DNA from: a virus
DNA length: 48,966 bases
Virus record (IMG/VR): IMGVR_UViG_3300013947_000058
Coordinates: 1-48,966 of that record
Reading direction: 5' to 3' (one strand)
Part shown: piece by piece, positions 1,404 to 36,175 of the stretch
Layout of the letters: each line of letters opens with the position of its first letter
Numbering within the stretch: position 1 is the first letter of the stretch
Notes under the pieces: generated by a model
Told to the model about the DNA's origin: nothing
Seen by the model: the letters and a program-made list of their open reading frames with translations, nothing else
The model's database searches: none
Translations under genes and position numbers: made by a program

Positions 1404-1736
1404 TCATTTTTCAATCAAAAATTTCTCCAGTTCGTCTCTTTGCTCTTTAAGCTTTTCAATCCCATTGCCTGTAATTTCGTGATTTAACAAAACAAGTAAT
1501 GCTTTACAAATCTCTTTATTTGCACATTCATTCTGTCGATTCTGTCTTTCAACTTCTTTAAATCTATTCCAGTCTCTTTCTAAAAATTCTTCGCTTTTAT
1601 CGACTCTTTCTTTTAGCTTTCGAATTGGACTAAATAATTTAATTATTGCTGAAACGCCTCCGGCTATTACTGAAACTCCTCCAAAGATTGAAAGCGCAAC
1701 AGAAATAAAACTTCCGAATTCTTTTATTCCAAACAT
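1404..1736 (-). CDS. Small membrane protein (one N-terminal TM helix plus coiled coil); possible lysis accessory
   Basis: AAGGAG RBS before ATG at 1736. Hydrophobic FGSFISVALSIFGGVSVIAGGVSAII is followed by a charged helical tail. Confidence 0.45.
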   Translation of the reverse strand: MFGIKEFGSFISVALSIFGGVSVIAGGVSAIIKLFSPIRKLKERVDKSEEFLERDWNRFKEVERQNRQNECANKEICKALLVLLNHEITGNGIEKLKEQRDELEKFLIEK

Positions 1737-1748
1737 CAATTTATCTCC

Positions 1749-14420: not shown

Positions 14421-14449
14421 ATTATACCACACAAAATTAGATTTGTAAA
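14421..14449 (-). promoter_or_regulatory. Promoter P3 (TTTACA -35, 17 nt, TGGTATAAT)
   Basis: Minus strand reads cctaTTTACAaatctaattttgtgTGGTATAATataa. Overlaps the 3' end of the ARH gene. Confidence 0.75.
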
Positions 14450-15234
14450 TAGGAAAATACAAAAATTTTGAACTTTTCCAAATAAATTTTAACCTTAGAA
14501 TCCAGTTGGTCAATCCATCTTTGCGGTATAGCATCATAACCAAATCTTGCCCCTGCAATACTACCGGTAATAGCAGCTATCGTGTCTGCATCACCACCAT
14601 CATTTACTGCACCAATTATGGCCTTTTCAAATGATGGTTTACTTGCCCAATATAATGAATTATTGAATGTATCTTTGATATATCCAGAAGGCTCCAGAAT
14701 TGATTTTACTTTATAGGTATATAAATTATTATATAATATATTCTGAATCAATCTGGTGTACTCCAGAATTATCTGGGAACATTCTGAATTATTATGAGTT
14801 AATTTACTTTGTGCCACATTCAAATCAGGTCTATTTATTAAAGCGCATGGCATAGCTCTCATCAAGCTACCATTACCAAGAGCTGTATTATCTCTTTTAA
14901 TAAAATGACCTGTTGACATTGCATAGATTATTCCTTTTTGACATTGACCACCTATATCTTTTGGCCCCATTCGATACCACTCAATAAAATTACCCATGCA
15001 ATGCTTTTCAAATAACTTAATATTATTCATCAAAGCATCCATTACACAGATAGTCATTTGAGTATCATCCGTTACCTTACCAGCTTCAAGATTTAACCAA
15101 CCACCACCAATAATATCGGTTACCTTACCATATTGCTTTTTGATTTGTTTATGATTCATAAACTCAGTAGTTGCACCCATTGCATCACCGATAGCAAATC
15201 CATATATTGCACCTGCAATCTTATTCTTTATCAT
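14437..15234 (-). CDS. ADP-ribosylglycohydrolase (DraG/ARH family)
   Basis: GFAIGDAMGATTEF, VTDDTQMT and NDGGDADTIAAITGSIAGA are hallmark ARH metal-binding motifs. Start uncertain (ATGs between 15234 and 15279). Overlaps the end of the preceding small ORF. Confidence 0.85.
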   Translation of the reverse strand: MIKNKIAGAIYGFAIGDAMGATTEFMNHKQIKKQYGKVTDIIGGGWLNLEAGKVTDDTQMTICVMDALMNNIKLFEKHCMGNFIEWYRMGPKDIGGQCQKGIIYAMSTGHFIKRDNTALGNGSLMRAMPCALINRPDLNVAQSKLTHNNSECSQIILEYTRLIQNILYNNLYTYKVKSILEPSGYIKDTFNNSLYWASKPSFEKAIIGAVNDGGDADTIAAITGSIAGARFGYDAIPQRWIDQLDSKVKIYLEKFKIFVFSYLQI

Positions 15235-15451
15235 ACTCAACATCATACTCAACACACTCACCTCCATCAAGGACTTCATCGGGCTTTACTTCATATTTGA
15301 CACATTTAGATGTGTTGCAAGGCATTCCTTTATCTTTGAAACGATTTCGACAATCCTTGCAAATCAGATTATCATTAGTTACCAAATTAAAGCTTAACTT
15401 ATCTTTTTGAAACTTCTCATCAATAGTACTTAAATTTTTATTTGTTGCCAT
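15221..15451 (-). CDS. Small Cys-rich (zinc-binding type) protein
   Basis: AAAGGAGG RBS before ATG 15451. CKDCRNRF...C...C...C pattern. First gene behind promoter P4. Confidence 0.6.
   Translation of the reverse strand: MATNKNLSTIDEKFQKDKLSFNLVTNDNLICKDCRNRFKDKGMPCNTSKCVKYEVKPDEVLDGGECVEYDVEYDKE
15230..15253. repeat. Perfect 12-bp tandem duplication (atcatactcaac x2)
   Basis: In frame in both overlapping ORFs. Gives VEYDVEYD in the small ORF and LSMMLSM in the ARH 5' extension. Confidence 0.9.
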
Positions 15452-25016: not shown

Positions 25017-25045
25017 ATTATACCACAAATATATAGGTTTGTACA
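25017..25045 (-). promoter_or_regulatory. Promoter P5 (TGTACA -35, 17 nt, TGGTATAAT)
   Basis: Minus strand reads caaaaatttttaagaaaaggGTGTACAaacctatatatttgTGGTATAATataat. The only cassette copy upstream of the packaging/structural block. Confidence 0.8.
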
Positions 25046-25131
25046 CCCTTTTCTTAAAAATTTTTGAAGATTTTTGTATTTTATTTTAGCAATATCAAGC
25101 TGATTTATTTTCAGGCTATTTCAGAAAGTCA

Positions 25132-25213
25132 CCAGATAATCCAGAATAAATCCAATTTATTTTATATAGATTTATATTGAATATTAAATAAAGTTAACCA
25201 GAAGTCATTCTGG
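25132..25213. repeat. Intergenic AT-rich element E1 bounded by CCAGAAT/ATTCTGG half-sites
   Basis: CCAGATAATCCAGAAT...(AT-rich core)...CCAGAAGTCATTCTGG. The core matches E3 in the opposite orientation (ttaactttatttaata). Confidence 0.7.
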
Positions 25214-25228
25214 ACTATCTTGGGATTA

Positions 25229-25885
25229 TTATTTATAAAATCTCATTCCTTCTGATTTATATAGAAATTCAAGATTTCTGCTATGCCAGTTATTTTCATT
25301 AGTGCAACTTTCAAAATATGTTGCACCTTCACTATAATCATACTTTGCTTCAGCAACTATTCTTACAGCTCTATAACAATCTTTGTTTGGCTCAACTCTA
25401 TCCCATCGTCCATCGTCAACAGGACTAAATTGATTTTTCTGAAATATTACTTCTTTAATTGTATCAGGAAACTCATTAGACTCTACACGATTTAATACAC
25501 ACATAATGATTAATGCTTTTGTTTGTGTATTGCATCCTTCAGCTTCTGCCATTGCAATCTTCGCTAATAGATAACTTTCTTGTGCTGACCAATCTTTACT
25601 ATATGTAAATTCAGGATAGTAATCAACATCAATATTTAATTCATGCTTTTCTTTTGTTTGTGGCTCAAATGTAATCAAATTATGCACCTGAGGTTTAATT
25701 GTCTCAATGTTTTGAGATTCATTTACTAACTCAGCATTGTTTATTACGTCTGTTTGATTTGACAGCTTAAATAATGCTATAAACATCATAATAAATACTA
25801 TTATTACATGCCATACTAAATTCTTTCTTGTGATTCTCTCAAGATTTCTTTGACTAATACGTCTTCGCTTTGTAGTCTGTTTCAT
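25229..25885 (-). CDS. SleB/CwlJ-type cell wall hydrolase with N-terminal signal-anchor
   Basis: TM segment VWHVIIVFIMMFIALFKL. Hydrolase_2-like LLAKIAMAEAEGCNTQTKALIIMCVLNRVESNEFPDTIKEVIFQKNQFSPVDDGRW. Confidence 0.75.
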   Translation of the reverse strand: MKQTTKRRRISQRNLERITRKNLVWHVIIVFIMMFIALFKLSNQTDVINNAELVNESQNIETIKPQVHNLITFEPQTKEKHELNIDVDYYPEFTYSKDWSAQESYLLAKIAMAEAEGCNTQTKALIIMCVLNRVESNEFPDTIKEVIFQKNQFSPVDDGRWDRVEPNKDCYRAVRIVAEAKYDYSEGATYFESCTNENNWHSRNLEFLYKSEGMRFYK

Positions 25886-25904
25886 TTTGTTTCCTCCGTT
25901 CCTT

Positions 25905-26405
25905 TTAACACTTAAATCTTAATTGAAAACCAGTCGTAATAGGGCACTCATCGCAGATACCATACTCACATGCAATTCCTTCTTCTAAACATTTACGTAG
26001 TATTTCAATGTCCTGTCTGAATTGCTTAAGTTTTTCTTCATCTTCTTTTTGAGATTCCAATTCTGTTGACTTAATGTCTTCTTCAACTTCTGCTTGCTTT
26101 TTGCTAATAATCATTAATTGCTTCCAATATTTCGGCATTTTATTACGTGCTTTAGCAAGCTCTCCTTTTGTTAGCTTTTTATTAGCTTTTATTTTTCTTG
26201 CAATATCTCCCATTTCTTTAGCATCGATTCTACTAAAACCAACACAATTATCATCAATACTTTCACCTTTGTTTTTCTCTTCAGGTGTTTGATTGTCATA
26301 TATTAATACAATAGACTTAAGCAATGCTTTATCATTAGTCTTTAATAAGCCTTTAAGATAAACTTCCCACTGTTTTTGATTAGTGAAATATTTCCATGCC
26401 GCCAT
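25905..26405 (-). CDS. Hypothetical protein
   Basis: AAAGGAGG RBS before ATG 26405 (MAAWKYF...). The longer track start at 26447 would contain its own RBS. C-terminal Cys cluster CEYGICDEC. Confidence 0.55.
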   Translation of the reverse strand: MAAWKYFTNQKQWEVYLKGLLKTNDKALLKSIVLIYDNQTPEEKNKGESIDDNCVGFSRIDAKEMGDIARKIKANKKLTKGELAKARNKMPKYWKQLMIISKKQAEVEEDIKSTELESQKEDEEKLKQFRQDIEILRKCLEEGIACEYGICDECPITTGFQLRFKC

Positions 26406-26446
26406 TTGATTTCCTCCTTTGATTTTTAACATATCATAACATATCA

Positions 26447-26553
26447 TCAGAATTGTCCAGAATGACCTCAGATTAATTTTTACTTATAAGATATATATTT
26501 TCTTATCTTAATAATTAAAATTAAACCTGAGACAATCTGGATAACTTCTGAAT
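26447..26553. repeat. Intergenic AT-rich element E2 bounded by CAGAAT/TTCTGA half-sites
   Basis: TCAGAATTGTCCAGAATGA...cttataagtaaaaattaatct-type core...ATCTGGATAACTTCTGAAT. The core matches E4 in the opposite orientation. Confidence 0.7.
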
Positions 26554-26948
26554 TATAATAAGCCTTTACGTTCAAGCCAATCTTCAAGGTCAGCCAAGTA
26601 TAAAATCAATTCTTGAATACGACTATTCCTAATTGATACCTCACCGTCATCATCGACTTCTGTAAATCTTTTCTCAGGAACAGGAATCGTTGTACCTTTT
26701 CCAATTTTATTAGCATAAGAACGAATATAATATGTAATTACACAAAATACGATTGGAATAAGTAGTTCACCACCGAAAGCAATTTTTCCTCGTTCTAAGC
26801 ATACTTTTTGTCCAATAATATACATTATGTAGGGAAGAATAAAACTTAAAATCCGTACAAAGTTTCTTAAATTATTTGTAATAAAGTAACGAATAGCTTG
26901 TACAACATCATGAATGATTGCACCCGTAATTTTTAAAAATCTTTTCAT
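26553..26948 (-). CDS. Membrane protein (2 predicted TM helices)
   Basis: Hydrophobic stretches ILSFILPYIMYIIG and LLIPIVFCVITYYI. Confidence 0.5.
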   Translation of the reverse strand: MKRFLKITGAIIHDVVQAIRYFITNNLRNFVRILSFILPYIMYIIGQKVCLERGKIAFGGELLIPIVFCVITYYIRSYANKIGKGTTIPVPEKRFTEVDDDGEVSIRNSRIQELILYLADLEDWLERKGLL

Positions 26949-26950
26949 TA

Positions 26951-27334
26951 TTATTTCTCCAGTCGCTTTCTAAGCATCTCTTTGTAATAATTCATCTTTA
27001 TATTTATTTTTTCTTCAAGACGTCTTTGAAAGCCTGCAGCACTGCATCTACTACAATGCGTATCTTCATTAATAAAGAAACTATGATGCATTTCTTTACA
27101 GCATTGACAATGTTGAGACATCACGTCTTTCTCTCCATCTTGAACTGCGAACAAATGTATTGTAATAGTTGGACATTCGATTTTGTTCTCTTTAACAAAT
27201 TGTACTTGAACATTTTCAAATTCAGCTTTGCTTAATACGTTTGTCGAATACCATTTTACAGCTGACATATATGCCGATTTCATTGTATTGGCTGTAAATG
27301 ATTTTTTGCAAAATTCTCTTGAGTACTTAATCAT
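26951..27334 (-). CDS. Cys-rich hypothetical protein
   Basis: CQCCKEMHH...HCSRCS motifs. Start is coupled to the upstream stop. Confidence 0.5.
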   Translation of the reverse strand: MIKYSREFCKKSFTANTMKSAYMSAVKWYSTNVLSKAEFENVQVQFVKENKIECPTITIHLFAVQDGEKDVMSQHCQCCKEMHHSFFINEDTHCSRCSAAGFQRRLEEKINIKMNYYKEMLRKRLEK

Positions 27335-27804
27335 CAGCTAACACCTTCTTTTGCTTTAAACGATTCTTCTTTCGCGAGCTTATCAACAAGCTCATTAAAA
27401 GTATTTCCTGCGTGACCTTTAATTTTAATGATTTGTATGTAAATTCCAAGAGATTCTACTTTATTCTTTAGATATGCGAATTCTTCCCATAGATCTCTAT
27501 TCTTTACATCATCATTTTTAGTTGTCTTCCAATTATTTTGTTGCCACTTGTCAATCCATCCATTATTGATTGAGTTAACAACATAAGCACTATCTGAATA
27601 CAACTCATATTCTGCATTTTTATTTTTAATTAGCACTCTCTTAAATGCTTCAATGACAGCTTTAAGCTCCATACGATTATTTGTTGTTGTCTTTTCGTTT
27701 CCACTAATCGTTGAACACTTGTTTGCTGTATTAAAAACTGCAGCCCATCCACCTGGACCAGGATTCTCTAAGCAAGCACCATCAGTGAATATTCTTACTT
27801 TCAA
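27334..27804 (-). CDS. rnhA: Ribonuclease HI
   Basis: IFTDGACLENPGPGGWAAV, TNNRMELKAVIEAF, YSDSAYVVN and KGHAGNTFNELVDKLA match the DEDD RNase H pattern. TTG start at 27804 with AAGGAGG 8 nt upstream. Confidence 0.9.
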   Translation of the reverse strand: MKVRIFTDGACLENPGPGGWAAVFNTANKCSTISGNEKTTTNNRMELKAVIEAFKRVLIKNKNAEYELYSDSAYVVNSINNGWIDKWQQNNWKTTKNDDVKNRDLWEEFAYLKNKVESLGIYIQIIKIKGHAGNTFNELVDKLAKEESFKAKEGVS

Positions 27805-27817
27805 TGACTTTTCCTCC

Positions 27818-28258
27818 TTAACTCCAATCTTCATTAGCTTTGGCTAATTTAGCATCAGCTTTCTTTGCAAGCCTCTCTCTTTGCTTTTCTTCTTTTGTCA
27901 TTGTTTTTACAGGTATATTTCCTGACTTTATATCTGCATACATTTTAATTGCTAACTTAGCAAATACTTCATATAAGCACATCCCATATACTGTTCCTAA
28001 CCACTTATGGTCTGTTGTTGTTTTTACACTAATTGAATAAATACCAAGAACAGGCTCAAAATATGACATGCTCATCCATTGTGGCGTAATTTCATATTTT
28101 TGAACCATTACACGAACAAGCTTTTCAATTGCTTCAATAGGAACATTAATCTCATCTGAGTATTTAGAAAGTGGCTTGATTTTTCTCAACACCTTCTGAA
28201 TTATTTCTCTATTTTCTTCTTTTCTGTAGTCCAAATTTAAAATTTGTTCTGTTTTCAT
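27818..28258 (-). CDS. Hypothetical protein
   Basis: AAGGAGG RBS. 146 aa, no recognisable motif. Confidence 0.5.
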   Translation of the reverse strand: MKTEQILNLDYRKEENREIIQKVLRKIKPLSKYSDEINVPIEAIEKLVRVMVQKYEITPQWMSMSYFEPVLGIYSISVKTTTDHKWLGTVYGMCLYEVFAKLAIKMYADIKSGNIPVKTMTKEEKQRERLAKKADAKLAKANEDWS

Positions 28259-28277
28259 GATACAGCTTGTACCTCCT

Positions 28278-28324
28278 TAAAACAAATATAAGCTGGATAT
28301 ATGTAAGTAACATATATCCAGCTT
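28278..28324 (-). terminator. Rho-independent terminator
   Basis: Perfect 15-bp stem AAGCTGGATATATGT/ACATATATCCAGCTT with a 5-nt loop, followed on the minus strand by atatttgtttt. Confidence 0.8.
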
Positions 28325-28364
28325 ACAGTTTCTTATTGAGCCGGATTCATAAGTTAACTAAGCA

Positions 28365-29120
28365 TTAGATATCCCAGTCATCATCGTCATCATCAGACTC
28401 AGCTTCTGTCTTCTTTGCAGCCTTAGCTTTACCAGTCTTAGCAGTTGCTTTCTTTGCAGTCTTCTTAGGAGCTTCAACATCTTCATCATCGCCCCAATCA
28501 TCATCGTCAGCTTCAGCTTCTGTAGTCTTGACTTTTGCAGCATCATTCTTAATGAGTAAATCAGCATAGAACTTAGCAGGCTTCTTAGGAGCTGCTTTAA
28601 TCTTACGAGCTTTGCACTCTTTGAAGAGTTCCATAGCGGTCTTACCTTCATAAGGATTAGCCTCAGTAGCATCTTCCTCTTCCTTGGCTTCTGCATCTTC
28701 GCCAAATGCTTTCTTGCAAGCTTCAATTAAGTCAGCCTTTTTAGTAGACTTAGCAAGCTTTCTCTTACCAGCCTTACCAAGAATTTCCCAAAGCTGCTTA
28801 GCGCTCATAGATTCATTCCACTGAGCAGTAGCTTCATCTTCAGCTGCGTCCTCTGTAGCAGCTTCAGCTTCGTCTGCATCCTCATCATCAGATGCAGTTT
28901 CAGTAATGCTTGCTTTAATTGCTGTGTTTACTTTGTTTGCCGTAAGATAATCAGGCATATAGCTCATAAGGTCAACAAAATCCTTACCAGCTTTTGCTAC
29001 AACAACTGCAACCTTAGTCGCAAGAACAGGATAACGTCTACCGATATCTGTAATTGCCTCTAAGTCAGTACCATCTGCGATAATCTTAACTGCTTCGTTA
29101 AAAGTGTAATTTTTTGCCAT
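28365..29120 (-). CDS. Acidic/lysine-rich protein with two SAP/Rho_N-like modules
   Basis: MSAKQLWEILGKAGKRKLAKSTKKADLIEACKKAF and TAMELFKECKARKIKAAPKKPAKFYADLL. C-terminus DDDDDDWDI. Driven by P6. Confidence 0.55.
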   Translation of the reverse strand: MAKNYTFNEAVKIIADGTDLEAITDIGRRYPVLATKVAVVVAKAGKDFVDLMSYMPDYLTANKVNTAIKASITETASDDEDADEAEAATEDAAEDEATAQWNESMSAKQLWEILGKAGKRKLAKSTKKADLIEACKKAFGEDAEAKEEEDATEANPYEGKTAMELFKECKARKIKAAPKKPAKFYADLLIKNDAAKVKTTEAEADDDDWGDDEDVEAPKKTAKKATAKTGKAKAAKKTEAESDDDDDDWDI

Positions 29121-29265
29121 TTTAATTTTCTCCTTTTCGTATTTTGATTTCGTATTTTGATTTTTGATTGATTTTCCTAAACTTAGGACTTTTATATGAT
29201 TGAGGTGTTCCTCATAATCATTTAATATTCAGTTTGGAAGATATTTCCTCCTTAACTGTAATTAT

Positions 29266-29294
29266 ATTATACCACGTTATTTGCCATTTGTACA
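29266..29294 (-). promoter_or_regulatory. Promoter P6 (TGTACA -35, 17 nt, TGGTATAAT)
   Basis: Minus strand reads tttttgaaaaacttttaaaaaaacctaTGTACAaatggcaaataacgTGGTATAATataat. Confidence 0.8.
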
Positions 29295-29348
29295 TAGGTT
29301 TTTTTAAAAGTTTTTCAAAAATTTTGAACTTTTATTTCATTTATTCAT

Positions 29349-29618
29349 CTATTCATCCCATGCATCTGAATCTTTGGAATTTTCCTCAGAAATTTTGATT
29401 GCAAAATTAACTGCATCTCTAAGATTATACAGTCCATGAATATCTTCAACATGAAATGCACCCTTCATAAATACCGAAGTAGTTTTGTCATTTTCTTTGG
29501 CTTCAAGCTGCTGAGCAATTGTGAATCCTCCTTTAGAACAAGTAGAGATAACAATGTTCCTTGAGTTTGTTACTTTTGCTCTAGATAGCTCATGATATTC
29601 AATCTTACTCTTCGCCAT
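29349..29618 (-). CDS. Small protein, possibly PC4/YdbC-like ssDNA-binding
   Basis: GGAGG RBS before ATG 29618. The pattern ISTCSKGGFTIAQQ...FMKGAFHV weakly resembles PC4-like folds. Acidic tail DSDAWDE. Confidence 0.3.
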   Translation of the reverse strand: MAKSKIEYHELSRAKVTNSRNIVISTCSKGGFTIAQQLEAKENDKTTSVFMKGAFHVEDIHGLYNLRDAVNFAIKISEENSKDSDAWDE

Positions 29619-29988
29619 CTTCAATATCCTCCATTTCGTCTATCTCAATATCTGCTTCCATGAGAACAATAAATTCTTTATTCTCATCAGAGTTCAAAGG
29701 AAGCAAATTAAGATTGTCCATTTCAATATAATCGTTAAGTCCATTAAGCTTGATTATAGACTCACCATCACCATCAATGACAATCTGCTTTATCCTGAAG
29801 AATCCAAGCTTCATAGGACTACCACCAGGAATTTTAGCTTTAATACTTACATCATTATTAAGCATCTGCATAAGCTGAATTGTATTTGCAAGCTCAGAAT
29901 ATTGAGCTTTAAGTGTAAAGTTAACTGAGCCATTAGCTGATAAGCTATGGCCACTATATTTCACGACCTCTTTAACCTTTACTTTCAT
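29605..29988 (-). CDS. Hypothetical protein
   Basis: Start coupled to the upstream stop. 127 aa with an acidic C-terminus. Confidence 0.5.
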   Translation of the reverse strand: MKVKVKEVVKYSGHSLSANGSVNFTLKAQYSELANTIQLMQMLNNDVSIKAKIPGGSPMKLGFFRIKQIVIDGDGESIIKLNGLNDYIEMDNLNLLPLNSDENKEFIVLMEADIEIDEMEDIEDGEE

Positions 29989-30467
29989 GTCGCTGACCTC
30001 TTTTCTTTTTTAAATCGTTTCTCATTTTCTTCATTAAATTGTTTACGTGCTCTTGAGCTTGATTTGATAGTCTTACCACCAATAGTAGTCATATCTTCAT
30101 GCTCACTTAAATCAACACCTAAAAATGCATTTGCATCGGTGTATTCTCCTGTTTTAATATATTGAGCTGCTTCACAAAGCATATCAGGTTTAACCAACAA
30201 ATAAACCTCATTTGATTGCAGAAATTGAATCGCAAACACAGGTAGTTTGTGAGCAACAGCTGCATTATAACTCAATGTATCTAAATCTTTCTTATGTATT
30301 CTAATACTCTCTGCGTCAGTTGATTTTAACTGACAAATAACTTCTTCTGATTGACCATCTTCCTTTTCAACCCAACCGGAACCTGAATTCTTTGTAGGCT
30401 TTAATCCAAGGGATTCCATCACTTCTGCTTCGTTCTTTCTGTAGAACTTTCCTGACCTTTTCATCAT
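29985..30467 (-). CDS. PD-(D/E)XK-type nuclease / Holliday-junction-resolvase-like protein (putative)
   Basis: NSGSGWVEKEDG...VICQLKSTD resembles the D...E-x-K nuclease core of small phage resolvases. Confidence 0.35.
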   Translation of the reverse strand: MMKRSGKFYRKNEAEVMESLGLKPTKNSGSGWVEKEDGQSEEVICQLKSTDAESIRIHKKDLDTLSYNAAVAHKLPVFAIQFLQSNEVYLLVKPDMLCEAAQYIKTGEYTDANAFLGVDLSEHEDMTTIGGKTIKSSSRARKQFNEENEKRFKKEKRSAT

Positions 30468-30469
30468 AC

Positions 30470-30808
30470 TTACATTCCCTTTAATACATCACCAAGCATA
30501 AAATCATATTCAGACTTGATTTGTATTTCTTCCTTAAGATATAGCTGAAAGTATTTAAGACCAGTCGCTGCAATTAACTCAAGCGGTAGATTTGACTTTG
30601 GCATAATATATCCAAACGTATATACTTGACTGTCAGCATCTCGTGTTCTATCTAACACAATACGCATTTGCCACTCATTCTCTTCTTGACCTCTTGTAAA
30701 GTTTGCTTTAAGCTTTGGCTTACCTTTATCGTCTTTCAGAATATAACTAAACTCTGAGCAAATCTTACCACTGTAAACTCGATTATCTAAATCCTTTAAT
30801 GTTAGCAT
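30470..30808 (-). CDS. Hypothetical protein
   Basis: 112 aa, tightly packed between its neighbours. Confidence 0.5.
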   Translation of the reverse strand: MLTLKDLDNRVYSGKICSEFSYILKDDKGKPKLKANFTRGQEENEWQMRIVLDRTRDADSQVYTFGYIMPKSNLPLELIAATGLKYFQLYLKEEIQIKSEYDFMLGDVLKGM

Positions 30809-31168
30809 TTATTGCCCTCCTTCTTTATTTTCTGCGGTCGAATCCTTCCATTGCTTATATACATGAGAAGCTATATTTGTTAGATAGTCTTTATCATACT
30901 TTGTTAATCTTGATGGAATATCAAATCCTGTATTTCCATCAAAATCATACATTGCATAATAATATGTTGAGCGTCTAAACTCTGCTGGGTCGCATGTTCT
31001 TTGTAACTCAACCAATTGATGAGATATACTATCATAGTATTGGTCAGATACGCAGCTCTCATTTTGCTCGTAATACATTATACTGTATACGATTATACGC
31101 CTTTGCAAATAGCTAATCTTAGCTGAATCAGACCAGTAGATGCAAGGCATCTTACTGAAGTCTATCAT
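30809..31168 (-). CDS. Hypothetical protein resembling domain Ia of NAD-dependent DNA ligase
   Basis: ISYLQRRIIVYSIMYYEQNESCVSDQYYDSISHQLVELQ matches the YY...SD..YD...L..L pattern of the LigA N-terminal domain. Confidence 0.3.
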   Translation of the reverse strand: MIDFSKMPCIYWSDSAKISYLQRRIIVYSIMYYEQNESCVSDQYYDSISHQLVELQRTCDPAEFRRSTYYYAMYDFDGNTGFDIPSRLTKYDKDYLTNIASHVYKQWKDSTAENKEGGQ

Positions 31169-31434
31169 TTATTATATTCACCTCCGGAACGTAATCCTGT
31201 TTTACTTTTGCGTTCACGAATAATTATCATTTCTTTTTGAGATTTTACTCTGCCATTCTTTATGCATTCTGCACTTAAGCACTTATTAAATAGCTTTTCA
31301 TTGCAAGCATCACATATTGTAAAAATACTGCCACCGATGCATAAATCAAACATATTTAAAACTTGGTCTTGACGCTCACCACACTCACAGCATATAGCAT
31401 CTGATTTTGTATTGTTTCGCATTTTAATAGCCAT
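31165..31434 (-). CDS. Zinc-ribbon protein
   Basis: CCECGER...CDACNEKL motifs. 89 aa. Confidence 0.5.
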   Translation of the reverse strand: MAIKMRNNTKSDAICCECGERQDQVLNMFDLCIGGSIFTICDACNEKLFNKCLSAECIKNGRVKSQKEMIIIRERKSKTGLRSGGEYNK

Positions 31435-31685
31435 TTGTTTTTAACCACTCTTTCATATCATAATCATACCAATCAAGAAAAACTCCTTCACCTTTAAGCA
31501 TGATAGATTGAACTTTCTTAGCAATTTTCTCGCCGATAGACTTATCAATTCCCTTCCATACAACAAAATGCTTTTTCTTAATTTGAACCCTTACTATATA
31601 CCGATGGTCTCTATTGGTCTCTATCAATATTTAAGTATTTAACACCCGTTGTACTTCTTGAATTTGGAGTTGTTCCTTTAATCAT
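31424..31685 (-). pseudogene. AP2-like DNA-binding domain ORF interrupted by a 10-bp tandem duplication
   Basis: ATG 31685 encodes MIKGTTPNSRSTTGVKYLNIDRDQ then stops. Removing one copy of atagagacca joins it in frame to HRYIVRVQIKKKHFVVWKG... (track ORF 31424..31627), giving 83 aa in total. Confidence 0.55.
31605..31624. repeat. Perfect 10-bp tandem duplication (tggtctctat x2)
   Basis: Each unit contains CTCTAT. Confidence 0.9.
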
Positions 31686-31899
31686 TATGACGTTTCCTTC
31701 CCCTTTCACAACCGCAGCTATGAACATGCTCACTTACTAATTGTCCTCTTCTCATTATCTTATCTGTTCCACAATCACAATGAACTCTATAGTAATGACG
31801 CATTTTGTCACCGCCAAGAGTCTTTTCATAATTGTGTCCTGCGTAGCTCATGACTTCAAGCTTACCTAAGCGTTTACCGATAATATCATTGACATTTAT
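31678..31899 (-). CDS. Zinc-finger protein of the GKxxGxLxV...CxCxCG...SCGC phage family, lacking a canonical start codon
   Basis: Frame encodes (I)NVNDIIGKRLGKLEVMSYAG...RVHCDCGTDKIMRRGQLVSEHVHSCGCERG. The only in-frame ATG (31851) lies inside the conserved N-terminal motif. The best-placed start position is an ATA (31899) after AAAGGAAAAG. Confidence 0.45.
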   Translation of the reverse strand: MNVNDIIGKRLGKLEVMSYAGHNYEKTLGGDKMRHYYRVHCDCGTDKIMRRGQLVSEHVHSCGCERGRKRHND

Positions 31900-32175
31900 C
31901 TGTACTTTTCCTTTTGTTGCTTTTTGTTGCTTTTGACATATTTATTCCTTCTTTCTCTAAATGCTTTTGTAAAATTTCAGCAAAATTATTTAAGCATTTC
32001 GTACACAAATAAATTTTTGTAGCATAATTATTTCTGCCAAAACTAAGTTTATGCATTTCACGTATTTCATTATTTTCGTTTAAATTATTTTCACCACATA
32101 CATTGCAAAATCCAAACTTATTAAATTTTTCAATTTTTAATATCTTTTTTTTAATATCTTTGTATTTGTATTCAT
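31886..32175 (-). CDS. Zinc-ribbon protein readable only with a -1 shift at an A8 run
   Basis: ATG 32175 with TAGGAGG RBS encodes MNTNTKILKK then stops. The -1 frame from the run at 32145-32152 continues KILKIEKFNKFGFCNVCGENN...YLCTKCLNNFAEIL... for 86 aa and has no start of its own. Confidence 0.45.
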
Positions 32176-32216
32176 GCTTATTCCTCCTAAGTATTTATTA
32201 TCCTCTCCTAAGGTCT

Positions 32217-32297
32217 CCAGATTAATCAGAATTAACTTTATTTAATAATTATATAAATATATAGATTATATATTAAAATTTATTCTGATTAATCTGG
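32217..32297. repeat. Intergenic AT-rich element E3 with a perfect 16-bp terminal inverted repeat
   Basis: CCAGATTAATCAGAAT (32217-32232) and ATTCTGATTAATCTGG (32282-32297) flank a 49-bp AT-rich core. Confidence 0.8.
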
Positions 32298-32319
32298 TAA
32301 TCAACCTAATAAACCATCA

Positions 32320-32336
32320 GGCCGCATTAAGCGGCC
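32320..32336 (-). terminator. GC hairpin overlapping the stop codon of the AAA+ gene (possible terminator)
   Basis: GGCCGC attaa GCGGCC. The downstream U-tract is weak (tgatggtttatt). Confidence 0.4.
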
Positions 32337-33418
32337 ATCTGAATTTTTCTTAATGCGATATGATACTTGGTACTTCCATTAGGATTAAATGTATTGATTG
32401 TATCTTTGTCTAAACCTTTAACAATGCTAATCTTCATTGCCATCTCTAAGTTCATACCTTTTGCTTCAAGTTTGGTAATCATTGTTATGCATCTATAGGA
32501 GAATGTAGCTCTAATTCCTTTTGATTCAGCTTCTTTTCTCATTTGATGAATAAATTCAACCAATTCTGAATTATTATGAGTAAGTGCCATTTCAATCTTC
32601 AAACAATAATCAAACTCAATGATTGCAAATCTATCAAGTGTTGCTTGGTCCAAAACCATGCGTCCTGTATACATATCATCTGCACCACTTCCTACTGTAT
32701 TACCAGCAGCTACAAAATGCACATGGTCAAAATCAACTCGACCATTAGGAAATTCAAAGTAACCATTAGCAATTGCTGCATTAAGAAGAACCAGAACTTC
32801 AGGAATTGAAGCATCCATTTCATCAAGAAAGAAAATGCATTCATTTTCATCTGTACAAGCTTTGTAGAATTCTGTTTCGTGGAAGTCACCACCTGCATCA
32901 ATGAATCCTGTAAGTTTATATTCTTGTTGGATTGAATTACTGAAGTAAAAATTCCACCCAAGCTCTTTTGCAATCTGCTCAACTGTGTGATTTTTACCAG
33001 AACCAGCAGGACCTGCAAGATAAACTGGAATGTTACATTCCAAACAACACTTAATTTCATCGTATCTGTCATGATGAACTTCATCATTTTCTTCAACTCG
33101 AGGAATAATAGTTGGCATTTTAATTCCTTTTCCTTCAAGTTTATTTTTAATTTTTGATGACGTGGTACCTACTTGCTTAGCTGTTGACATTTTCTTAATG
33201 CCCTTGGTTTCGTATTCACGTTCAACCTTTTCTACCTGATAGTTTGCATCGAAGTAAATTCTGCAACCATCAATCACTGTTGTGTTGTTGTATGCTTTAC
33301 GCACATAAGTGAACTCTTTACTTGAACCTTCAAACTTAAGTGTAACAACTACACAGCCATGTTTCATTGCTTTTTCAATTTTGATAACTTCGAAATTTAC
33401 GTTTGTCATGTTTGTCAT
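32327..33418 (-). CDS. AAA+ ATPase (MoxR / AAA_5-like)
   Basis: Walker A VYLAGPAGSGKNHT. Walker B IFFLDEMDASIPEVLVLLNAAI. Driven by P7. Confidence 0.7.
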   Translation of the reverse strand: MTNMTNVNFEVIKIEKAMKHGCVVVTLKFEGSSKEFTYVRKAYNNTTVIDGCRIYFDANYQVEKVEREYETKGIKKMSTAKQVGTTSSKIKNKLEGKGIKMPTIIPRVEENDEVHHDRYDEIKCCLECNIPVYLAGPAGSGKNHTVEQIAKELGWNFYFSNSIQQEYKLTGFIDAGGDFHETEFYKACTDENECIFFLDEMDASIPEVLVLLNAAIANGYFEFPNGRVDFDHVHFVAAGNTVGSGADDMYTGRMVLDQATLDRFAIIEFDYCLKIEMALTHNNSELVEFIHQMRKEAESKGIRATFSYRCITMITKLEAKGMNLEMAMKISIVKGLDKDTINTFNPNGSTKYHIALRKIQMAA

Positions 33419-33486
33419 AATGTTTTTCTCCTTTTCAACTGAAAACTTTGTGATTTGTTCGTAGGCTTTATGTACCTTACGATATT

Positions 33487-33515
33487 ATAATACCATATAA
33501 GCTGGAGTTTGTACA
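33487..33515 (-). promoter_or_regulatory. Promoter P7 (TGTACA -35, 17 nt, TGGTATTAT)
   Basis: Minus strand reads tttttgaaaaattttcgtaaaaaggGTGTACAaactccagcttataTGGTATTATaatatc. Confidence 0.75.
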
Positions 33516-33529
33516 CCCTTTTTACGAAA

Positions 33530-33565
33530 ATTTTTCAAAAACTTCAAGGGAGGTTTTAGCCTCCC
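33530..33565 (-). terminator. Rho-independent terminator
   Basis: Minus strand reads GGGAGGctaaaaCCTCCCttgaagtttttg, directly after the stop at 33573. Confidence 0.6.
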
Positions 33566-33572
33566 AATCAGT

Positions 33573-34385
33573 TTAGATATTTTCAAGGTCATCAATTGTT
33601 TTAATTGTGTTTACGTCCTTCTTAATGAAGTTAGGTAGTAAATATTCACCTTTGAATATCTCACGCATTTCATTTGAAGTAGCTGGACTACCATAATTAC
33701 TTACAAAACTCTTTGTGACGTTTGGATAAACCTCAATGAATCTAAAGAACAAACGACGAAGCATTGATGGATGAACCAATGGGAATGCAAGTTTTGAAAC
33801 ATTCATCTTTTCATTTGCCGATTTGATTCTCACTTTAATAACGAATTGTTTTGAAGGATAACCAGCAGTTGTACCAAGCACAATGTTCAAGTTGCATCTG
33901 TAACATTGAGCCTCAAGCTTCTTGACAATCTGCATTGCTTTTATACTTTCTTCAATTATTTGCTCTGCACTTACACCACCATTGTAGTCGATTGATTTGT
34001 TTAATGTAATGACTTTCTGCTTAACAGGTGTCATTTTCTTTGTGACCATGTTATTTGGTACACCTTGCAAATACAATGGAACAATTGCTTGATAACCTGC
34101 AATGCTCAATGTGTTTTTAGGTTTCATTGTTGGCTCTGTTTTGCTCTCAATTACCTTGAGTTTTTGAACCAATTTAGTTGCCATATCTGACCAACCGTTC
34201 TTAAACAACTCAACTGCTTCACTGAAGTCTCTTGTTTTTGTGAAATAGTAGTCACCATCAACTGATGAATGTTTAGCCCAACAGAAAGCTTCATTGAATG
34301 GTGTATGAATTAGATACTCATAAAACTCATGTAAGCTATCATACTCAATAACTTCTGTTTTGTTTGTGATTTGATTTGATTTCAT
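33573..34385 (-). CDS. Hypothetical protein (partner gene of the AAA+ ATPase)
   Basis: AGAGGAGG RBS. 270 aa, no motif recognised. Driven by P8. Confidence 0.5.
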   Translation of the reverse strand: MKSNQITNKTEVIEYDSLHEFYEYLIHTPFNEAFCWAKHSSVDGDYYFTKTRDFSEAVELFKNGWSDMATKLVQKLKVIESKTEPTMKPKNTLSIAGYQAIVPLYLQGVPNNMVTKKMTPVKQKVITLNKSIDYNGGVSAEQIIEESIKAMQIVKKLEAQCYRCNLNIVLGTTAGYPSKQFVIKVRIKSANEKMNVSKLAFPLVHPSMLRRLFFRFIEVYPNVTKSFVSNYGSPATSNEMREIFKGEYLLPNFIKKDVNTIKTIDDLENI

Positions 34386-34436
34386 GTTGTTTTCCTCCTC
34401 TAAGGATTTATGTGTTATACCTTAACCACTGTAATT

Positions 34437-34465
34437 ATTATATCACAAGGATTTTGATTTGTACA
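34437..34465 (-). promoter_or_regulatory. Promoter P8 (TGTACA -35, 17 nt, TGATATAAT)
   Basis: Minus strand reads catagggtaTGTACAaatcaaaatccttgTGATATAATaatt. Confidence 0.75.
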
Positions 34466-34500
34466 TACCCTATGTAAAATTATTTTAGTTAGTTAAAAAT

Positions 34501-34623
34501 GAAATAGACTTTATAGAAATAGACTTTATAATAGATAAGGGTCTATATAGGGTCTTCTATATAGGGTCTATAGATTTTAGACTTTAAGCTCTATAAGCTC
34601 TATAAGCTCTATAGACCCTATCA
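34501..34623. repeat. Iteron-like repeat array (candidate origin or operator region)
   Basis: gaaatagactttata x2 (34501-34530). gggtct(tc)tata x3. aagctctat x3 (34586-34612). Perfect 13-bp inverted repeat atagggtctatag (34561-34573) / ctatagaccctat (34609-34621). Adjacent CACGTG. Confidence 0.8.
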
Positions 34624-34645
34624 CGTGCACACGTAAAAAAAATAA

Positions 34646-34792
34646 TTATTTATAATATTTATATTGCTCTTTGCGTATTAGTTGTTTTTGCTCTTCCCAT
34701 TTAGCTTTCTCTTTCTGATATTTATCACACTCAGCGTGACACCCTATATGCCTTGTTGGAGGCACGCAGTCTTTACAACACTTAATTTGCAT
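34646..34792 (-). CDS. Small Cys-rich protein (48 aa)
   Basis: Not in the track. ATG 34792 with AGGAGG RBS. Encodes MQIKCCKDCVPPTRHIGCHAECDKYQKEKAKWEEQKQLIRKEQYKYYK. Confidence 0.5.
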   Translation of the reverse strand: MQIKCCKDCVPPTRHIGCHAECDKYQKEKAKWEEQKQLIRKEQYKYYK

Positions 34793-34793
34793 A

Positions 34794-35477
34794 TTATTTT
34801 TCCTCCTGAAGTTTGTCTTGGTCACCTACAAAACCAAACATAGCTATTCCTGCACTATCTGCAGCGTCATTGTTATACATGTATTTCTGCCCATCTCTGA
34901 CAAATGTTCCTTTAGTCTTTCTACCCTCTATTGGTATAAGAATATTATTTTCCCAGCCCTGTTTTAGTAGCCATTTGACTGTAGGCCATTTCTCTTCTGG
35001 AACTCCAAACTTATTTGCCATAGGTTTACTTGTGCCTATTACTTGAGCTTTCCAGCATCTTGTATCTACACTATAAACTGGGACACAATACTCATGGCAT
35101 TTGTCTACTATGATACTGTTTAAAGCACCAATAGACTTTATGTAGTCGATATTGAGAAAACCCTGAGAACGAAGCCTAATTCTTTCTATGATGCAAATGA
35201 CTTCTCTTGCTTTTGGACAAACTGCTTTAAGGAGACCATTAAGCGTATTTGCTAATGCCCTCCTTTTATCGCTATTTGTTTTGTATGTACTTAATTGTAA
35301 GCTTCGTACTTTTACAAGCTTTCCATCTGCTGCAATACTAATACCAGTATTATTATATGATTGGTCTATGCCTACTATTACTTTCTGATATTTATAGTGC
35401 TGCTTACATTGCTTGTCTTCGCAATCTAAACAATCCAGATAGACAGCTGTACCTAGTAAAGGGCAAGGCCTACCCAT
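34794..35477 (-). CDS. RuvC-like Holliday junction resolvase
   Basis: Catalytic-acid pattern VIVGIDQSYNNTGISI ... ICIIERI ... NNDAADSAGIA. N-terminal Cys cluster. Confidence 0.55.
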   Translation of the reverse strand: MGRPCPLLGTAVYLDCLDCEDKQCKQHYKYQKVIVGIDQSYNNTGISIAADGKLVKVRSLQLSTYKTNSDKRRALANTLNGLLKAVCPKAREVICIIERIRLRSQGFLNIDYIKSIGALNSIIVDKCHEYCVPVYSVDTRCWKAQVIGTSKPMANKFGVPEEKWPTVKWLLKQGWENNILIPIEGRKTKGTFVRDGQKYMYNNDAADSAGIAMFGFVGDQDKLQEEK

Positions 35478-35518
35478 ATCAATTCCTCCTTTTATTTTGA
35501 TATTTATTCCAAGGGGCT

Positions 35519-35611
35519 CCAGAATTATCCAGAATGAATTTTAATTATTAGGATATGAATTTATATACCTTATAAGTAAAAATTAATCTGAATAATCCTG
35601 AAACCTTCTGG
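35519..35611. repeat. Intergenic AT-rich element E4 bounded by CCAGAAT/TTCTGG half-sites
   Basis: CCAGAATTATCCAGAATGA...ccttataagtaaaaattaatctga...CCTTCTGG. The plus-strand core equals the minus-strand core of E2. Confidence 0.7.
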
Positions 35612-35644
35612 AAATATCTTAATTATTATAAATAATTTAATATA

Positions 35645-36175
35645 TTAGTCTTTTATTTTAATTCTTTCCAAAATCAAATCTTTTGGCAAAATGTTATAAC
35701 ATAGATATGCCGACTGAAATACACCGCCGCCTTGCTTTCTTATGCCATCTTCATAAAAGAAATATGGGACTCTTGGATATAGATAGAGCAAACCAATGTT
35801 CTTATCTTCAAAATATGAGAATCTTTTGTTATTATCAAACAGACCTAATGTATTAATCAGCATAGCAAATGGAATATCTAATTCAAATAATTTTTCGAAG
35901 ACCTCTGTCTTTTTTGAATATGGAGGATTGCTAATAATATAGTCCACCTTTGTTCTTATTTTTCTTAATTTAAAAAAATCTTTACCTTCAGAAATATGGC
36001 TATGCAAAACATTAAAACCCTGCTCTCTAAGAACTTTTACAAAATTAGAATCCTCTGTATCAAATGGACACAATACTGTGCTACCTGGCTTTAAAAATTT
36101 AATGATAGGATATATAGCACATTTTGGCGTATAGTATTCGTCTTGTTTATTTAGCTTTAAAGTATGACTTGACAT
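35645..36175 (-). CDS. N6-adenine DNA methyltransferase
   Basis: DEYYTP near the N-terminus and catalytic DYIISNPPYSKK. Confidence 0.75.
   Translation of the reverse strand: MSSHTLKLNKQDEYYTPKCAIYPIIKFLKPGSTVLCPFDTEDSNFVKVLREQGFNVLHSHISEGKDFFKLRKIRTKVDYIISNPPYSKKTEVFEKLFELDIPFAMLINTLGLFDNNKRFSYFEDKNIGLLYLYPRVPYFFYEDGIRKQGGGVFQSAYLCYNILPKDLILERIKIKD

Follow-up and report, generated by a model that had tools for sequence, protein, structure and literature searches.

In cluster A mycobacteriophages, stoperators are repressor sites dispersed at the gene junctions of a one-strand genome, where they affect transcription through the site. In phages P2 and 186, small proteins bind arrays of 9-10-bp boxes (the Cox-box and Apl arrays) with a periodicity of approximately 10.5 bp, oligomerise, bend DNA, and control promoters. 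T4-type promoter-early stem-loops (PeSLs) are mobile regulatory cassettes at gene boundaries, and recombination between their copies shuffles modules. The R sites of T7 and the early-mRNA sites of Bacillus phage SP82 are RNA elements of fixed orientation, hairpins that act as RNase III processing sites. REP/BIME and Rickettsia palindromic elements are numerous, chromosome-wide, and mobile or RAYT-associated. SPBRE of the Bacillus phage SPbeta is a short motif present as many intergenic, promoter-proximal repeats, bound by the master repressor MrpR; in silico work had proposed it to be a regulator site decades before its binder was discovered (PMC10516654).

Our data indicate that a 48,966-nucleotide phage sequence from IMG/VR (the whole stretch analysed here, referred to as the window) contains five copies, E1 to E5, of one conserved, near-palindromic DNA module of approximately 105-120 bp (Table 1). 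The elements belong to a family found in uncultured gut Clostridia phages. An earlier note had described four AT-rich elements with paired half-sites; their sequences at 25132-25213, 26447-26553, 32217-32297, and 35519-35611 are as quoted, including the perfect 16-bp inverted repeat of E3 (CCAGATTAATCAGAAT) flanking its 49-bp core. That set was incomplete, lacking E5, which lies within an ADP-ribosylglycohydrolase (ARH) ORF. In addition, the true extents are approximately 10-20 bp wider, because the arms usually hold three phased half-sites rather than two. An nhmmer profile trained on relatives only, with the window copies left out, recovered exactly these five sites, while dinucleotide-shuffled versions of the window (n=30) scored at most 6 bits. 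Pairwise local alignment scores were 28-56 across all element pairs, compared to shuffle means of approximately 15-17 (sd approximately 2.4), and 16 of the 94 CCAGR/YCTGG pentamers in the genome fall within the 584 bp of the elements (1.1 expected, p = 3e-14). The similarity among the elements is thus far above chance. The proposed opposite orientations were borne out, with inverted versus direct alignment scores of 43 vs 30 for E1-E3 and 56 vs 42 for E2-E4, but the two proposed subfamilies are only a loose split of a single family in which all five copies can be aligned. A motif at 1321-1337, earlier listed as related, was recovered by no profile and was rejected as a family member; it is the apex of a terminator-like hairpin, 13 bp long and G+C-rich (-24 kcal/mol, z = -4.6).

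Table 1. Elements and associated features in the window. E-values of E1-E5 are from the relatives-only nhmmer profile.
Feature	Position	Strand	Description	E-value
E1	25113..25230		Directly after stop codon of SleB-like hydrolase gene 25229..25885	7e-23
sigma-A cassette	25017..25045	-	TGTACA-17-TATAAT with upstream TG; 86 bp downstream of E1, preceding the terS/terL operon	
E2	26438..26556		Three CCAGR half-sites, core, three YCTGG half-sites	1e-19
E3	32197..32305		Perfect 16-bp arms, 49-bp core	2e-7
E4	35504..35622		Between methyltransferase-like ORF 35645..36175 and RuvC-like resolvase 34794..35477	3e-23
E5	~14677..14795		Inside ARH ORF, ~aa 164-199	1e-13
ARH (DraG-like) ORF carrying E5	14437..15279	-		2e-40 (2woc); 4e-52 (PF03747)
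sigma-A cassette	14421..14449	-	TTTACA...TGTGGTATAAT; downstream of E5	

The genes flanking E1-E4 are co-directional, all on the minus strand, and not convergently packed as had been reported. E2-E4 occupy the whole gap from a stop codon to approximately 40-50 nt ahead of the next ATG. E2 shares the stop codon of gene 26553..26948 at one end, and at the other stops approximately 40 nt short of the next ATG (start put at 26405, with an alternative reading giving an ATG with AGGAGG at 26395-26397), and the resolvase ATG lies 42 nt beyond the end of E4. E3 is placed after the hairpin ending an AAA gene and before small ORFs.

Each half-site follows the decamer consensus T(C/T)CAGAWTNA, spanning 9-10 positions, with two to three half-sites per arm spaced 10 bp apart. 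The two arrays are mutually inverted and face each other across an AT-rich, length-constrained core, which contains a covarying mini-hairpin and a near-invariant ATATAWWT centre. Adjacent half-sites of the same arm are 9-11 bp apart in 64 of 66 pairs. The distance between the innermost half-sites is 58 bp, changing to 48, 68, or 78 bp where a site has been lost or gained. Opposite-arm distances in general cluster in 10-bp steps (48, 58, 68, 78, 88, and 98 bp, all to within 1 bp; phase concentration for a 10-bp period, 0.80). Core length is constant to within 1 bp. This 10-bp quantisation and the conserved centre did not feature in the earlier note. Half-site columns are nearly invariant among paralogues and, as a check of related genomes found, among orthologues: the central half-site pairs are CG in 69-70, AU in 73, and GC in 76 of 78 sequences, and CCAG is invariant in all nine E4-type sequences. 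Spacers are variable, and their complementarity between the arms is only 52% vs 39% for the null. The asymmetric centre is oriented with the genes at E1 and E4 and against them at E2, E3, and E5.

Like SPBRE, these elements place a short conserved motif at many intergenic, promoter-proximal spots of one phage genome, but SPBRE is a single 15-bp motif of a temperate phage, whereas here four to six phased half-sites form a 110-bp composite of two inverted arrays around a conserved centre. We detected no integrase, lysogeny module, or MrpR-like protein in this phage. Phased arrays of approximately decamer boxes are shared with the Cox-box and Apl systems, in which, however, most boxes are directly repeated and sit at one or two loci (switch region, attP). 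The present elements instead pair two inverted arrays across a constant 58-bp gap and occur at five loci; no Xis/Cox-like protein was identified in the phage. Stoperators share the many dispersed copies at junctions of a one-strand genome, but they are single asymmetric sites of 13-17 bp in fixed orientation, while the elements here are composite, near-palindromic, and found in both orientations.

We found orthologous copies at matching positions in approximately 20 related IMG/VR phages. Orthologues of E1 occur at loci L001-L007, L047, and L200-L205, and those of E4 at L049-L059, L280-L289, L306, L308, and L330; at least eight relatives have an E2 orthologue, positioned approximately 590 bp upstream of the hydrolase gene, and an E3 orthologue occurs on only one other contig, IMGVR 3300026522_000007 (L054, L308), where a tRNA precedes it. 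At L308 the ORF upstream of E4 is absent, so the element adjoins the exonuclease gene. Family matches were found solely on phage-sized or short contigs. The earlier note had offered miniature mobile elements as one option, and MITEs or other selfish cassettes spreading within or between phage genomes would account for terminal inverted repeats, a length of 80-120 bp, several copies in both orientations, the presence of E3 in just two sampled lineages, and one copy in frame within a gene, reminiscent of Rickettsia palindromic elements. However, no copy (E1-E5) is flanked by target-site duplications, paralogues within a genome are strongly diverged (none near-identical) while orthologues at fixed loci are alike, and core length is constant. 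Among relatives there are no clean empty sites, and absence of E3 accompanies different neighbouring genes. No transposase gene was found, and family copies were found neither in bacterial chromosomes in a GTDB scan, including the one chromosome that was hit, nor in GenBank phages. Because the helix coded by the E5 arms can also be aligned with native DraG sequence, E5 is no simple insertion. The mobile-cassette reading is therefore largely refuted, and we regard it as very improbable. REP/BIME and Rickettsia palindromic elements are likewise dispersed imperfect palindromes between genes, and, as with the latter, one copy is translated within a protein, but here there are four to five syntenic copies per phage genome without sign of transposition.

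We considered whether the elements act as RNA, as a long imperfect hairpin serving as an RNase III processing site, an mRNA 3'/5'-end stabiliser, or both. All genes lie on one strand, so every element would be transcribed and polycistronic transcripts could be cut into units, and the intergenic position 40-50 nt upstream of ribosome-binding sites is suitable. Double-stranded RNA stems of 20 bp or more are RNase III substrates, and sense-strand folds are stable (-24 to -36 kcal/mol; z-scores -3.3 to -7.1). For E4, E1, and E3 the sense strand gives the better fold (E4, -34.2 vs -22.6 kcal/mol, with four G.U pairs), and sense rows contain 134 G.U vs 67 A.C in a structure-fitted alignment, whose model was derived from sense E4 copies and leans toward those. 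Arm complementarity, chiefly in the inner mini-hairpin, is maintained by compensatory changes: one position is GC in 43, UA in 16, and CG in 4 sequences, and the covariation score is 0.28 compared to 0.16 for shuffles and below 0.09 for slid controls. On the other hand, there is no clear family-wide sense bias, as sense-strand mismatches are 137 G.T vs 109 A.C, only 20 of the 33 copies fold better on the sense strand, and for the E2 type the antisense fold is slightly the better one. The half-sites are conserved in sequence and do not covary, most spacers are non-complementary, the RNAalifold covariation term for E4 orthologues (+0.89) gives no support for structure, and Rfam holds no matching family. 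Nor does an RNA role account for the strict 10-bp phasing maintained across the core. T7 and SP82 hairpins resemble the elements in being several related intergenic hairpins between co-transcribed genes of a lytic phage, but the present elements differ in orientation from copy to copy, show no clear excess of G.U, and have half-sites with B-DNA-like phasing. An RNA function, the main rival to the operator reading given below, seems rather unlikely to us. At the E4 position of L309, a G+C-rich 12-bp inverted repeat replaces the usual CCAGA arrays; this repeat and the compensatory changes suggest a role for nucleic-acid structure (cruciform or RNA hairpin), although templated quasi-palindrome correction could also be their source.

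The copy within the ARH gene provides a separate view of selection. In the sense direction of the gene its half-sites read > < > > core < <, and its arms code for the helix THNNSECSQIILEYTRLIQNIL and the residues EPSGY. Among ARH-bearing relatives, 5 of 114 columns are variable within E5 (4%) vs 98 of 669 outside it (15%; p = 0.0015), indicating that E5 is under extra purifying selection beyond protein coding. The distance from E5 to its cassette is approximately 230 bp here and approximately 70 bp in relatives without the ARH gene. One such relative, L080, has lost the ARH gene and kept the element, which is a recombinant with the left arm of one type, the right arm of another, and the crossover in the conserved centre. 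Such a crossover would fit elements that act via DNA structure, as cruciform-prone or easily unwound secondary origins of replication or priming, or as recombination points for module shuffling. Consistent with this are the inverted arrays around a fixed-length AT-rich core with an extrudable mini-hairpin, the strand symmetry of arm complementarity, the UvsX-like recombinase and two junction resolvases encoded by the phage, and the accessory-gene indels that border the upstream edges of E1 and E4 when relatives are compared; moreover, SPP1 has two dispersed origins, one within a gene. Five origins would nevertheless be unusual for a 49-kb genome, the iteron-rich stretch at 34470-34650 is a more conventional candidate for an origin, and ORF domain scans found no initiator, HUH nickase, or site-specific recombinase gene. 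GC skew was uninformative, and indels are equally expected at any transcription-unit boundary. We judge this possibility quite unlikely. PeSLs are similarly repeated cassettes beside variable accessory genes (compare L080 and the indels beside E1 and E4), but they combine a recognisable early promoter with a short stem-loop, whereas the elements here have phased half-sites and no clear sigma-A promoter.

The elements are associated with transcription-unit junctions. Sigma-A cassettes lie 45-90 bp downstream of E1, E5-type copies, and one L309 copy, and the region 3' of the PolIII gene in relatives contains a cassette alone, an element with a cassette, or an element alone. As the earlier note held, the elements themselves are neither sigma-A cassettes nor simple intrinsic terminators, the latter reading being rejected as they have no U-tract. 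The hairpin before E3 is terminator-like in relatives, and E1 analogues in L249-L253 also come after a terminator-looking hairpin. Little read-through RNA is expected at these copies, which counts against an RNA role, and the element is the sole remaining room for a promoter. The best sigma-70-like match of any element is in E3 (TTAATA-17-TATAAT, sense strand, 32276-32248), and TGGTATAAT is present on the sense strand in the L249, L250, and L214 cores. The region holds 47 sigma-70-like matches, no more than the 50 expected from shuffles, so any promoter within the AT-rich cores is only a candidate. The mixed orientation of the asymmetric centre is also awkward for a one-directional promoter. 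A bidirectional regulatory module is a possible alternative reading.

Among the options of the earlier note, operator or looping sites fit best, because half-sites are nearly invariant while spacers vary, because they are 10-bp phased within arms and across the core, and because copies are syntenic and the in-gene copy shows extra purifying selection. The near strand symmetry of mismatches and folds and the location at junctions are in line with this reading as well. We therefore tentatively favour, at somewhat short of an even chance, the reading that the elements are DNA-level operator arrays for an oligomeric protein controlling transcription-unit junctions; that a protein binds these putative sites, that the arrays bridge, and that transcription is affected are what we infer. 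An oligomeric, sequence-specific DNA-binding protein, probably phage-encoded, would bind the phased sites cooperatively on one helix face, after which the two inverted arrays would bridge the flexible core or wrap it. Such a complex might control transcription at the gene-module junction in either of two ways: it could block or switch on a weak promoter lying within the core or next to it, or it could insulate the strong sigma-A promoter found after some copies. A 58-bp bridge between the arrays would require severe bending, which counts against such operators, as do the compensatory changes and the L309 repeat described above. Pfam and PHROGs scans of approximately 60 ORFs gave no clear transcription factor, yielding only a Rho_N/SAP-like domain and some zinc-ribbon proteins. 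If the operator reading is true, these phages would possess a dispersed operator system for temporal control.

We found that E1 to E4, the AT-rich intergenic near-palindromes of the window, form a single family with a fifth copy, E5, which turned up as another CCAGA cluster (14684-14790) when CCAGA was counted and which lies inside the gene for an ADP-ribosylglycohydrolase (ARH, DraG-like). The four element sequences are as the earlier note had quoted them, E3 indeed carries a perfect 16-bp inverted repeat with 49 bp between its halves, and the described likeness of E2 and E4 in opposite orientations is borne out by a match of 82% over 74 nt between the plus strand of E2 and the minus strand of E4. 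Pairwise local scores between elements (28-56) exceed the means of shuffled controls (approximately 15-17), and E5 can be aligned with E1-E4 in a single shared orientation. A profile made solely from the copies of other phages found exactly five sites in the window (E = 3e-23 to 2e-7), compared to 6 bits or less on thirty dinucleotide shuffles of the window. The half-sites, CCAGR and its inverse YCTGG, are concentrated in the elements: these total 584 bp and contain 16 of the 94 such pentamers of the genome (p = 3e-14). Close inverted pairs (CCAGR-N2-6-YCTGG) number 4 against 1.2 expected, with two inside elements and no clear enrichment outside. A short motif at 1321-1337 that had been taken as related instead forms the top of a G+C-rich hairpin of 13 bp behind a gene at 1404..1739; this hairpin is probably a terminator.

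Coordinates of the elements and of other features of the window and its relatives
Feature	Position	Strand	Remarks
E1	25113..25230		AT-rich intergenic near-palindrome
E2	26438..26556		AT-rich intergenic near-palindrome
E3	32197..32305		AT-rich intergenic near-palindrome
E4	35504..35622		AT-rich intergenic near-palindrome
E5	14677..14795		inside the ARH ORF
ARH ORF	14437..15279	-	separated from the 15524-17509 fusion gene by one 76-aa ORF
Sigma-A cassettes	800, 1282, 14449, 15509, 25045, 29294, 33515, 34465, 40098, 43066, 45103	-	promoter repeat of the phage
Terminal repeat	1-99 = 48868-48966		exact, 99 bp
G+C-rich hairpin	1305-1345		-24 kcal/mol; 35 nt upstream of a sigma-A cassette
Fusion gene	15524-17509		SPP1 gp7-like minor head protein fused to Alt-like ADP-ribosyltransferase domain
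Holin/endolysin-like ORF	19121-20269		single ORF, 382 aa; N-terminus resembles holin families, remainder endolysin families
Second cell-wall hydrolase	25229..25885		SleB-like; between E2 and E1
Strong hairpin	28287-28327		16-18 bp; terminator score on both strands; separates gene 28365..29120 (acidic protein) from gene 27818..28258
Two small ORFs	31424-31851		57 and 67 aa; resemble pieces of a zinc-finger gene whole in relatives (MAKRGKVLINVNDIIGKRLGKLEVISYAGH...)
Direct repeats	34470-34650	-	CTTATAGAG x3, GACCCTATATAGA x2-3, ATAAAGTCTATTTC x2; just upstream of the cassette at ~34465, near DUF7192 and AAA genes
Nucleotide-metabolism cluster	36176-46700		dATP triphosphohydrolase-like (phrog_7076), MazG-like pyrophosphohydrolase, nucleoside deoxyribosyltransferase, ThyX-like, SAM methyltransferase, dCMP deaminase, OGG_N glycosylase-like protein
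Element-like palindromes	L309:11760-11960, L300:12730-12815		relatives; directly behind the PolIII gene, 76% and 61% PolIII clades
tRNA-like sequences	L054:6100-6200, L062:6003-6250		relatives; directly behind the AAA-gene terminator; in L054 just before the E3 copy
Hybrid element	L080 (IMGVR_UViG_3300029822_000306), 300-800		relative; ARH lost except codons 138-179, fused to the element

Given its exact terminal repeat, the window represents a complete genome of 48,867 bp in a circular or circularly permuted assembly. It has a G+C content of 34.5%, and all of its plausible genes lie on the minus strand. Replication and nucleotide metabolism are represented by a primase, an SSB-like protein, PolIII alpha, a UvsX-like recombinase, RNase H and a pair of junction resolvases. 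The packaging and structural genes comprise terS/terL, the portal and an SPP1 gp7-like head protein that carries an ADP-ribosyltransferase fusion, past which ARH and then head and tail genes follow. GenBank phages gave no DNA-level match to the window with megablast or blastn, and among isolates the PolIII alpha protein comes closest to those of gut phages of Agathobaculum and Clostridium (52-59% identity). The nucleotide-metabolism cluster hints at modified DNA, the ADP-ribosyltransferase fusion together with ARH may represent an injected toxin or modifier plus its antidote, and the two small ORFs downstream of E3 are probably a decayed homing-endonuclease-like gene.

The usual layout of an element, read in gene sense, is three CCAGR sites, a core, and three YCTGG sites, and the repeat unit is the decamer T(C/T)CAGAWTNA. 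Adjacent sites within an arm are spaced 9-11 bp apart in 64 of 66 pairs, while sites in opposite arms are separated by 48, 58, 68, 78, 88 or 98 bp, each ±1 bp, with the innermost pair at 58 bp in most copies. These cross-core distances show a phase concentration of 0.80 for a period of 10 bp, compared to 0.05 for one of 8 bp. Since the opposite-arm distances are quantised, the length of the core is constant despite the divergence of core sequence among paralogues. The most conserved columns of the family are those of the centre, ATATAWWT, which is surrounded by a mini-hairpin of 4-7 bp whose stem sequence varies between copies and whose complementarity is kept (AAGGTAT/ATACCTT, AAGATA/TATCTT, TTGGAT/ATCCA, GGGA/TCCC, GATGG/CCATC). 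E1 is not strictly symmetric because its third left site is inverted, which suggests that the sites count one by one, beyond being stem halves.

Relatives were represented by several hundred IMG/VR loci, gathered with hydrolase, AAA, ARH, terL and PolIII protein searches. The E2, E1 and E4 positions carry orthologous elements in close relatives where those regions were sampled, E5-type copies are common, and syntenic conservation extends over approximately 20 phages. At a given locus the asymmetric centre mostly points the same way, with exceptions in L214 and L058. More distant relatives use half-site 'dialects', CCTAGGATTGATT in L063 and L265 and TCAGATGAC in L249-L253, where the window has CCAGA. 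The copy that L309 has at the E4 position retains both centre and mini-hairpin, and a G+C-rich 12-bp inverted repeat replaces the usual arrays. Among the sampled loci, E3 occurs in the window and one other contig only (IMGVR 3300026522_000007). A scan of GTDB with a more specific pattern returned 72 matches, of which the true members were six loci on four contigs; all four are phage-sized or short, none is chromosomal, and they were binned in MAGs of Lachnobacterium, Oscillospiraceae, Clostridia and Eubacteriales. An exact-pattern scan of IMG/VR with CCAGAATNNNNNCAGATTNA was too unspecific, and among the matches listed most were chance-like. Agathobaculum phage AB434P2, the nearest isolate (59% PolIII identity), contains no family member and one unrelated 65-bp palindrome, and in relatives further removed by terL (73-74% identity) copies were mostly undetectable within ±10 kb of that gene.

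This distribution bears on the proposal that the elements are miniature mobile elements (MITEs), for which presence/absence in relatives had been named as a signature. Orthologues are syntenic, paralogues are diverged, and the absence of E3 goes with different downstream genes. The arms are inverted repeats, a MITE-like trait, and are built from internal decamers. We found no direct repeat common to the flanks of E1-E5 and no target-site duplication, empty site, young copy or transposase, and the core length is fixed; we therefore reject the MITE proposal.

Elements sit at gene junctions, with a sigma-A cassette or a start codon downstream, and in BLAST comparisons of the window with its relatives homology breaks at their upstream edge. 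In L200, E1 is separated from the stop codon of the hydrolase gene by 934 bp that hold a ThyX-like gene and one further ORF; in the window, a methyltransferase-like ORF of 563 bp, absent from L308, separates E4 from the exonuclease gene; and L308 has a tRNA ahead of E3. Downstream of PolIII, the window, L280, L289 and L292 have a sigma-A cassette alone, L309 has an element followed by a cassette 45 nt on, and L300 has an element without a cassette and then a ribosome-binding site. The AAA gene ends in a hairpin, and E3 comes after it; in relatives this hairpin has the appearance of a good terminator and reaches into a CAGA...TCTGG pair. The E1 analogues of L249-L253 lie behind a terminator-like hairpin and immediately ahead of terS. 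A few relatives' elements, including the E1 analogues of L249 and L250, have TGGTATAAT in the core.

As the earlier note had maintained, the elements are neither promoter cassettes nor terminator hairpins. The approximately eleven sigma-A cassettes are near-identical (TGTACA-N17-TATAAT with TG and an A/T-rich upstream tract, along the gene strand), and both their repeat families and a regular-expression scan exclude the elements. Their upstream tract is of the form AAAAnTTTTTCAAAAA and UP-element-like, and the cassettes may themselves be mobile regulatory cassettes. A generic sigma-70 scan gave no excess of matches over shuffles, and the sole 10/12 match among elements is in E3. The element stems are A+T-rich with no T-run behind, and since no U-tract follows, they are not intrinsic terminators; a terminator scan within elements flagged only a small CCAGAATGACTTCTGG hairpin inside E1.

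E5 occupies codons ~164-199 of the ARH gene. Its arms encode THNNSECSQIILEYTRLIQNIL and EPSGY, both of which align to native DraG segments, and its AT core takes the place of a longer variable DraG stretch. Across five ARH genes (approximately 90% protein identity), 5 of 114 columns are variable inside E5 compared to 98 of 669 outside (p = 0.0015), and at third codon positions 3 of 38 compared to 60 of 223 (p = 0.013). A G+C-richer version of E5 is still present in the more diverged ARH gene of L209. The glycohydrolase is absent from several close relatives. In relatives without ARH, the element lies between the head-morphogenesis gene, whose stop codon falls in the first spacer, and the same sigma-A promoter approximately 70 bp downstream. 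The hybrid element of L080 has an ARH-type left arm and a non-ARH-type right arm, so a crossover took place in the shared conserved AT centre. E5 provides a clear case of selection on a cis element within a protein-coding gene.

We asked whether the elements act as DNA or as RNA. Folding is strong on both strands, with sense-strand z-scores of -3.3 to -7.1, and a stable hairpin on the transcribed strand would suit the main rival reading, a transcribed RNA hairpin for processing (an RNase III-type site) or for stability. We consider such an RNA rather unlikely, and across the family the evidence pulls both ways. Against it, the sense strand folds better in only 20 of 33 copies, sense-strand mismatches in self-alignment are G.T 137 times and A.C 109 times, and the spacers are weakly complementary (0.52 vs a null of 0.39). 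Rfam 15 gave no match at gathering thresholds and, at E <= 1, just two chance matches to miRNA models, both outside elements, and a tRNA search returned nothing relevant. RNAalifold provided no covariation support; on the mixed 22-sequence alignment it predicted no structure because arm registers shift. In a covariance-model alignment, pairing and compensatory change exceeded the controls (0.28, compared to 0.16 in shuffled and below 0.09 in slid controls), which argues for some structural role. This covariation comes mainly from the inner hairpin and certain spacer pairs, the pairs formed by half-sites are invariant, and the pattern is equally expected from a DNA palindrome. In the sense rows of the structure-fitted alignment G.U outnumbers A.C by 134 to 67, a 2:1 excess that is weak evidence since the model was built from sense E4 copies. 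In our reading, the CCAGR decamers are under sequence-specific selection with B-DNA geometry, and dyad symmetry is also kept, either for a function as cruciform or hairpin or by templated correction of quasi-palindromes. If they act as RNA after all, the elements would correspond, in Gram-positive gut phages, to the RNase III sites of T7.

The best supported interpretation, which we hold tentatively, is that the elements are dispersed composite operator arrays that would assemble an oligomeric protein at transcription-unit junctions. The site part of the operator option raised earlier stands: the sites are short, conserved, in helical phase, located at junctions and promoters, and syntenic in relatives. 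Scans of the phage ORFs with Pfam and PHROGs gave no clear candidate for the cognate regulator. AbrB TGGNA pairs, CodY, Fur/PerR and LexA, as well as dif/Xer, resolvase res, protelomerase and pac sites, were provisionally set aside, on sequence grounds alone. The closest documented concept is SPBRE/MrpR of SPbeta, although the anatomy of the elements differs. A role in replication or recombination, including a cruciform role, seems improbable to us. Initiator-like repeats beside an AT-rich region are an architecture compatible with an origin, but there are five copies, no initiator was found among the phage genes, and a separate iteron-like cluster lies at 34470-34650. This cluster is itself a candidate replication origin; the GC skew, negative throughout, carries no information on the origin.

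Returning to operator arrays, a more specific and rather doubtful proposal is that the elements are the DNA half of a new phage timing switch, in which a putative new-family protein on six phased decamers would clamp the core. The clamped core would be of fixed length, hairpin-capable and AT-rich, with ATATAWWT at its centre, and clamping would activate or silence entire gene modules, or trigger firing at secondary origins. Such a system would be important enough for one copy to be overprinted on ARH and to outlive the deleted gene.

The regulation of uncultured gut Clostridia phages is almost unknown, and this element family makes it approachable through a conserved, concrete feature that is defined by its sequence. 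Its fixed geometry constrains any candidate binding protein, and the elements mark junctions at which accessory genes (ThyX-like, methyltransferase-like, tRNA and ARH) are gained and lost. Should a binding protein be identified, the elements would delimit the temporal transcription units in this lineage of phages, and they could also be used in Firmicute hosts as portable control modules that tolerate either orientation.
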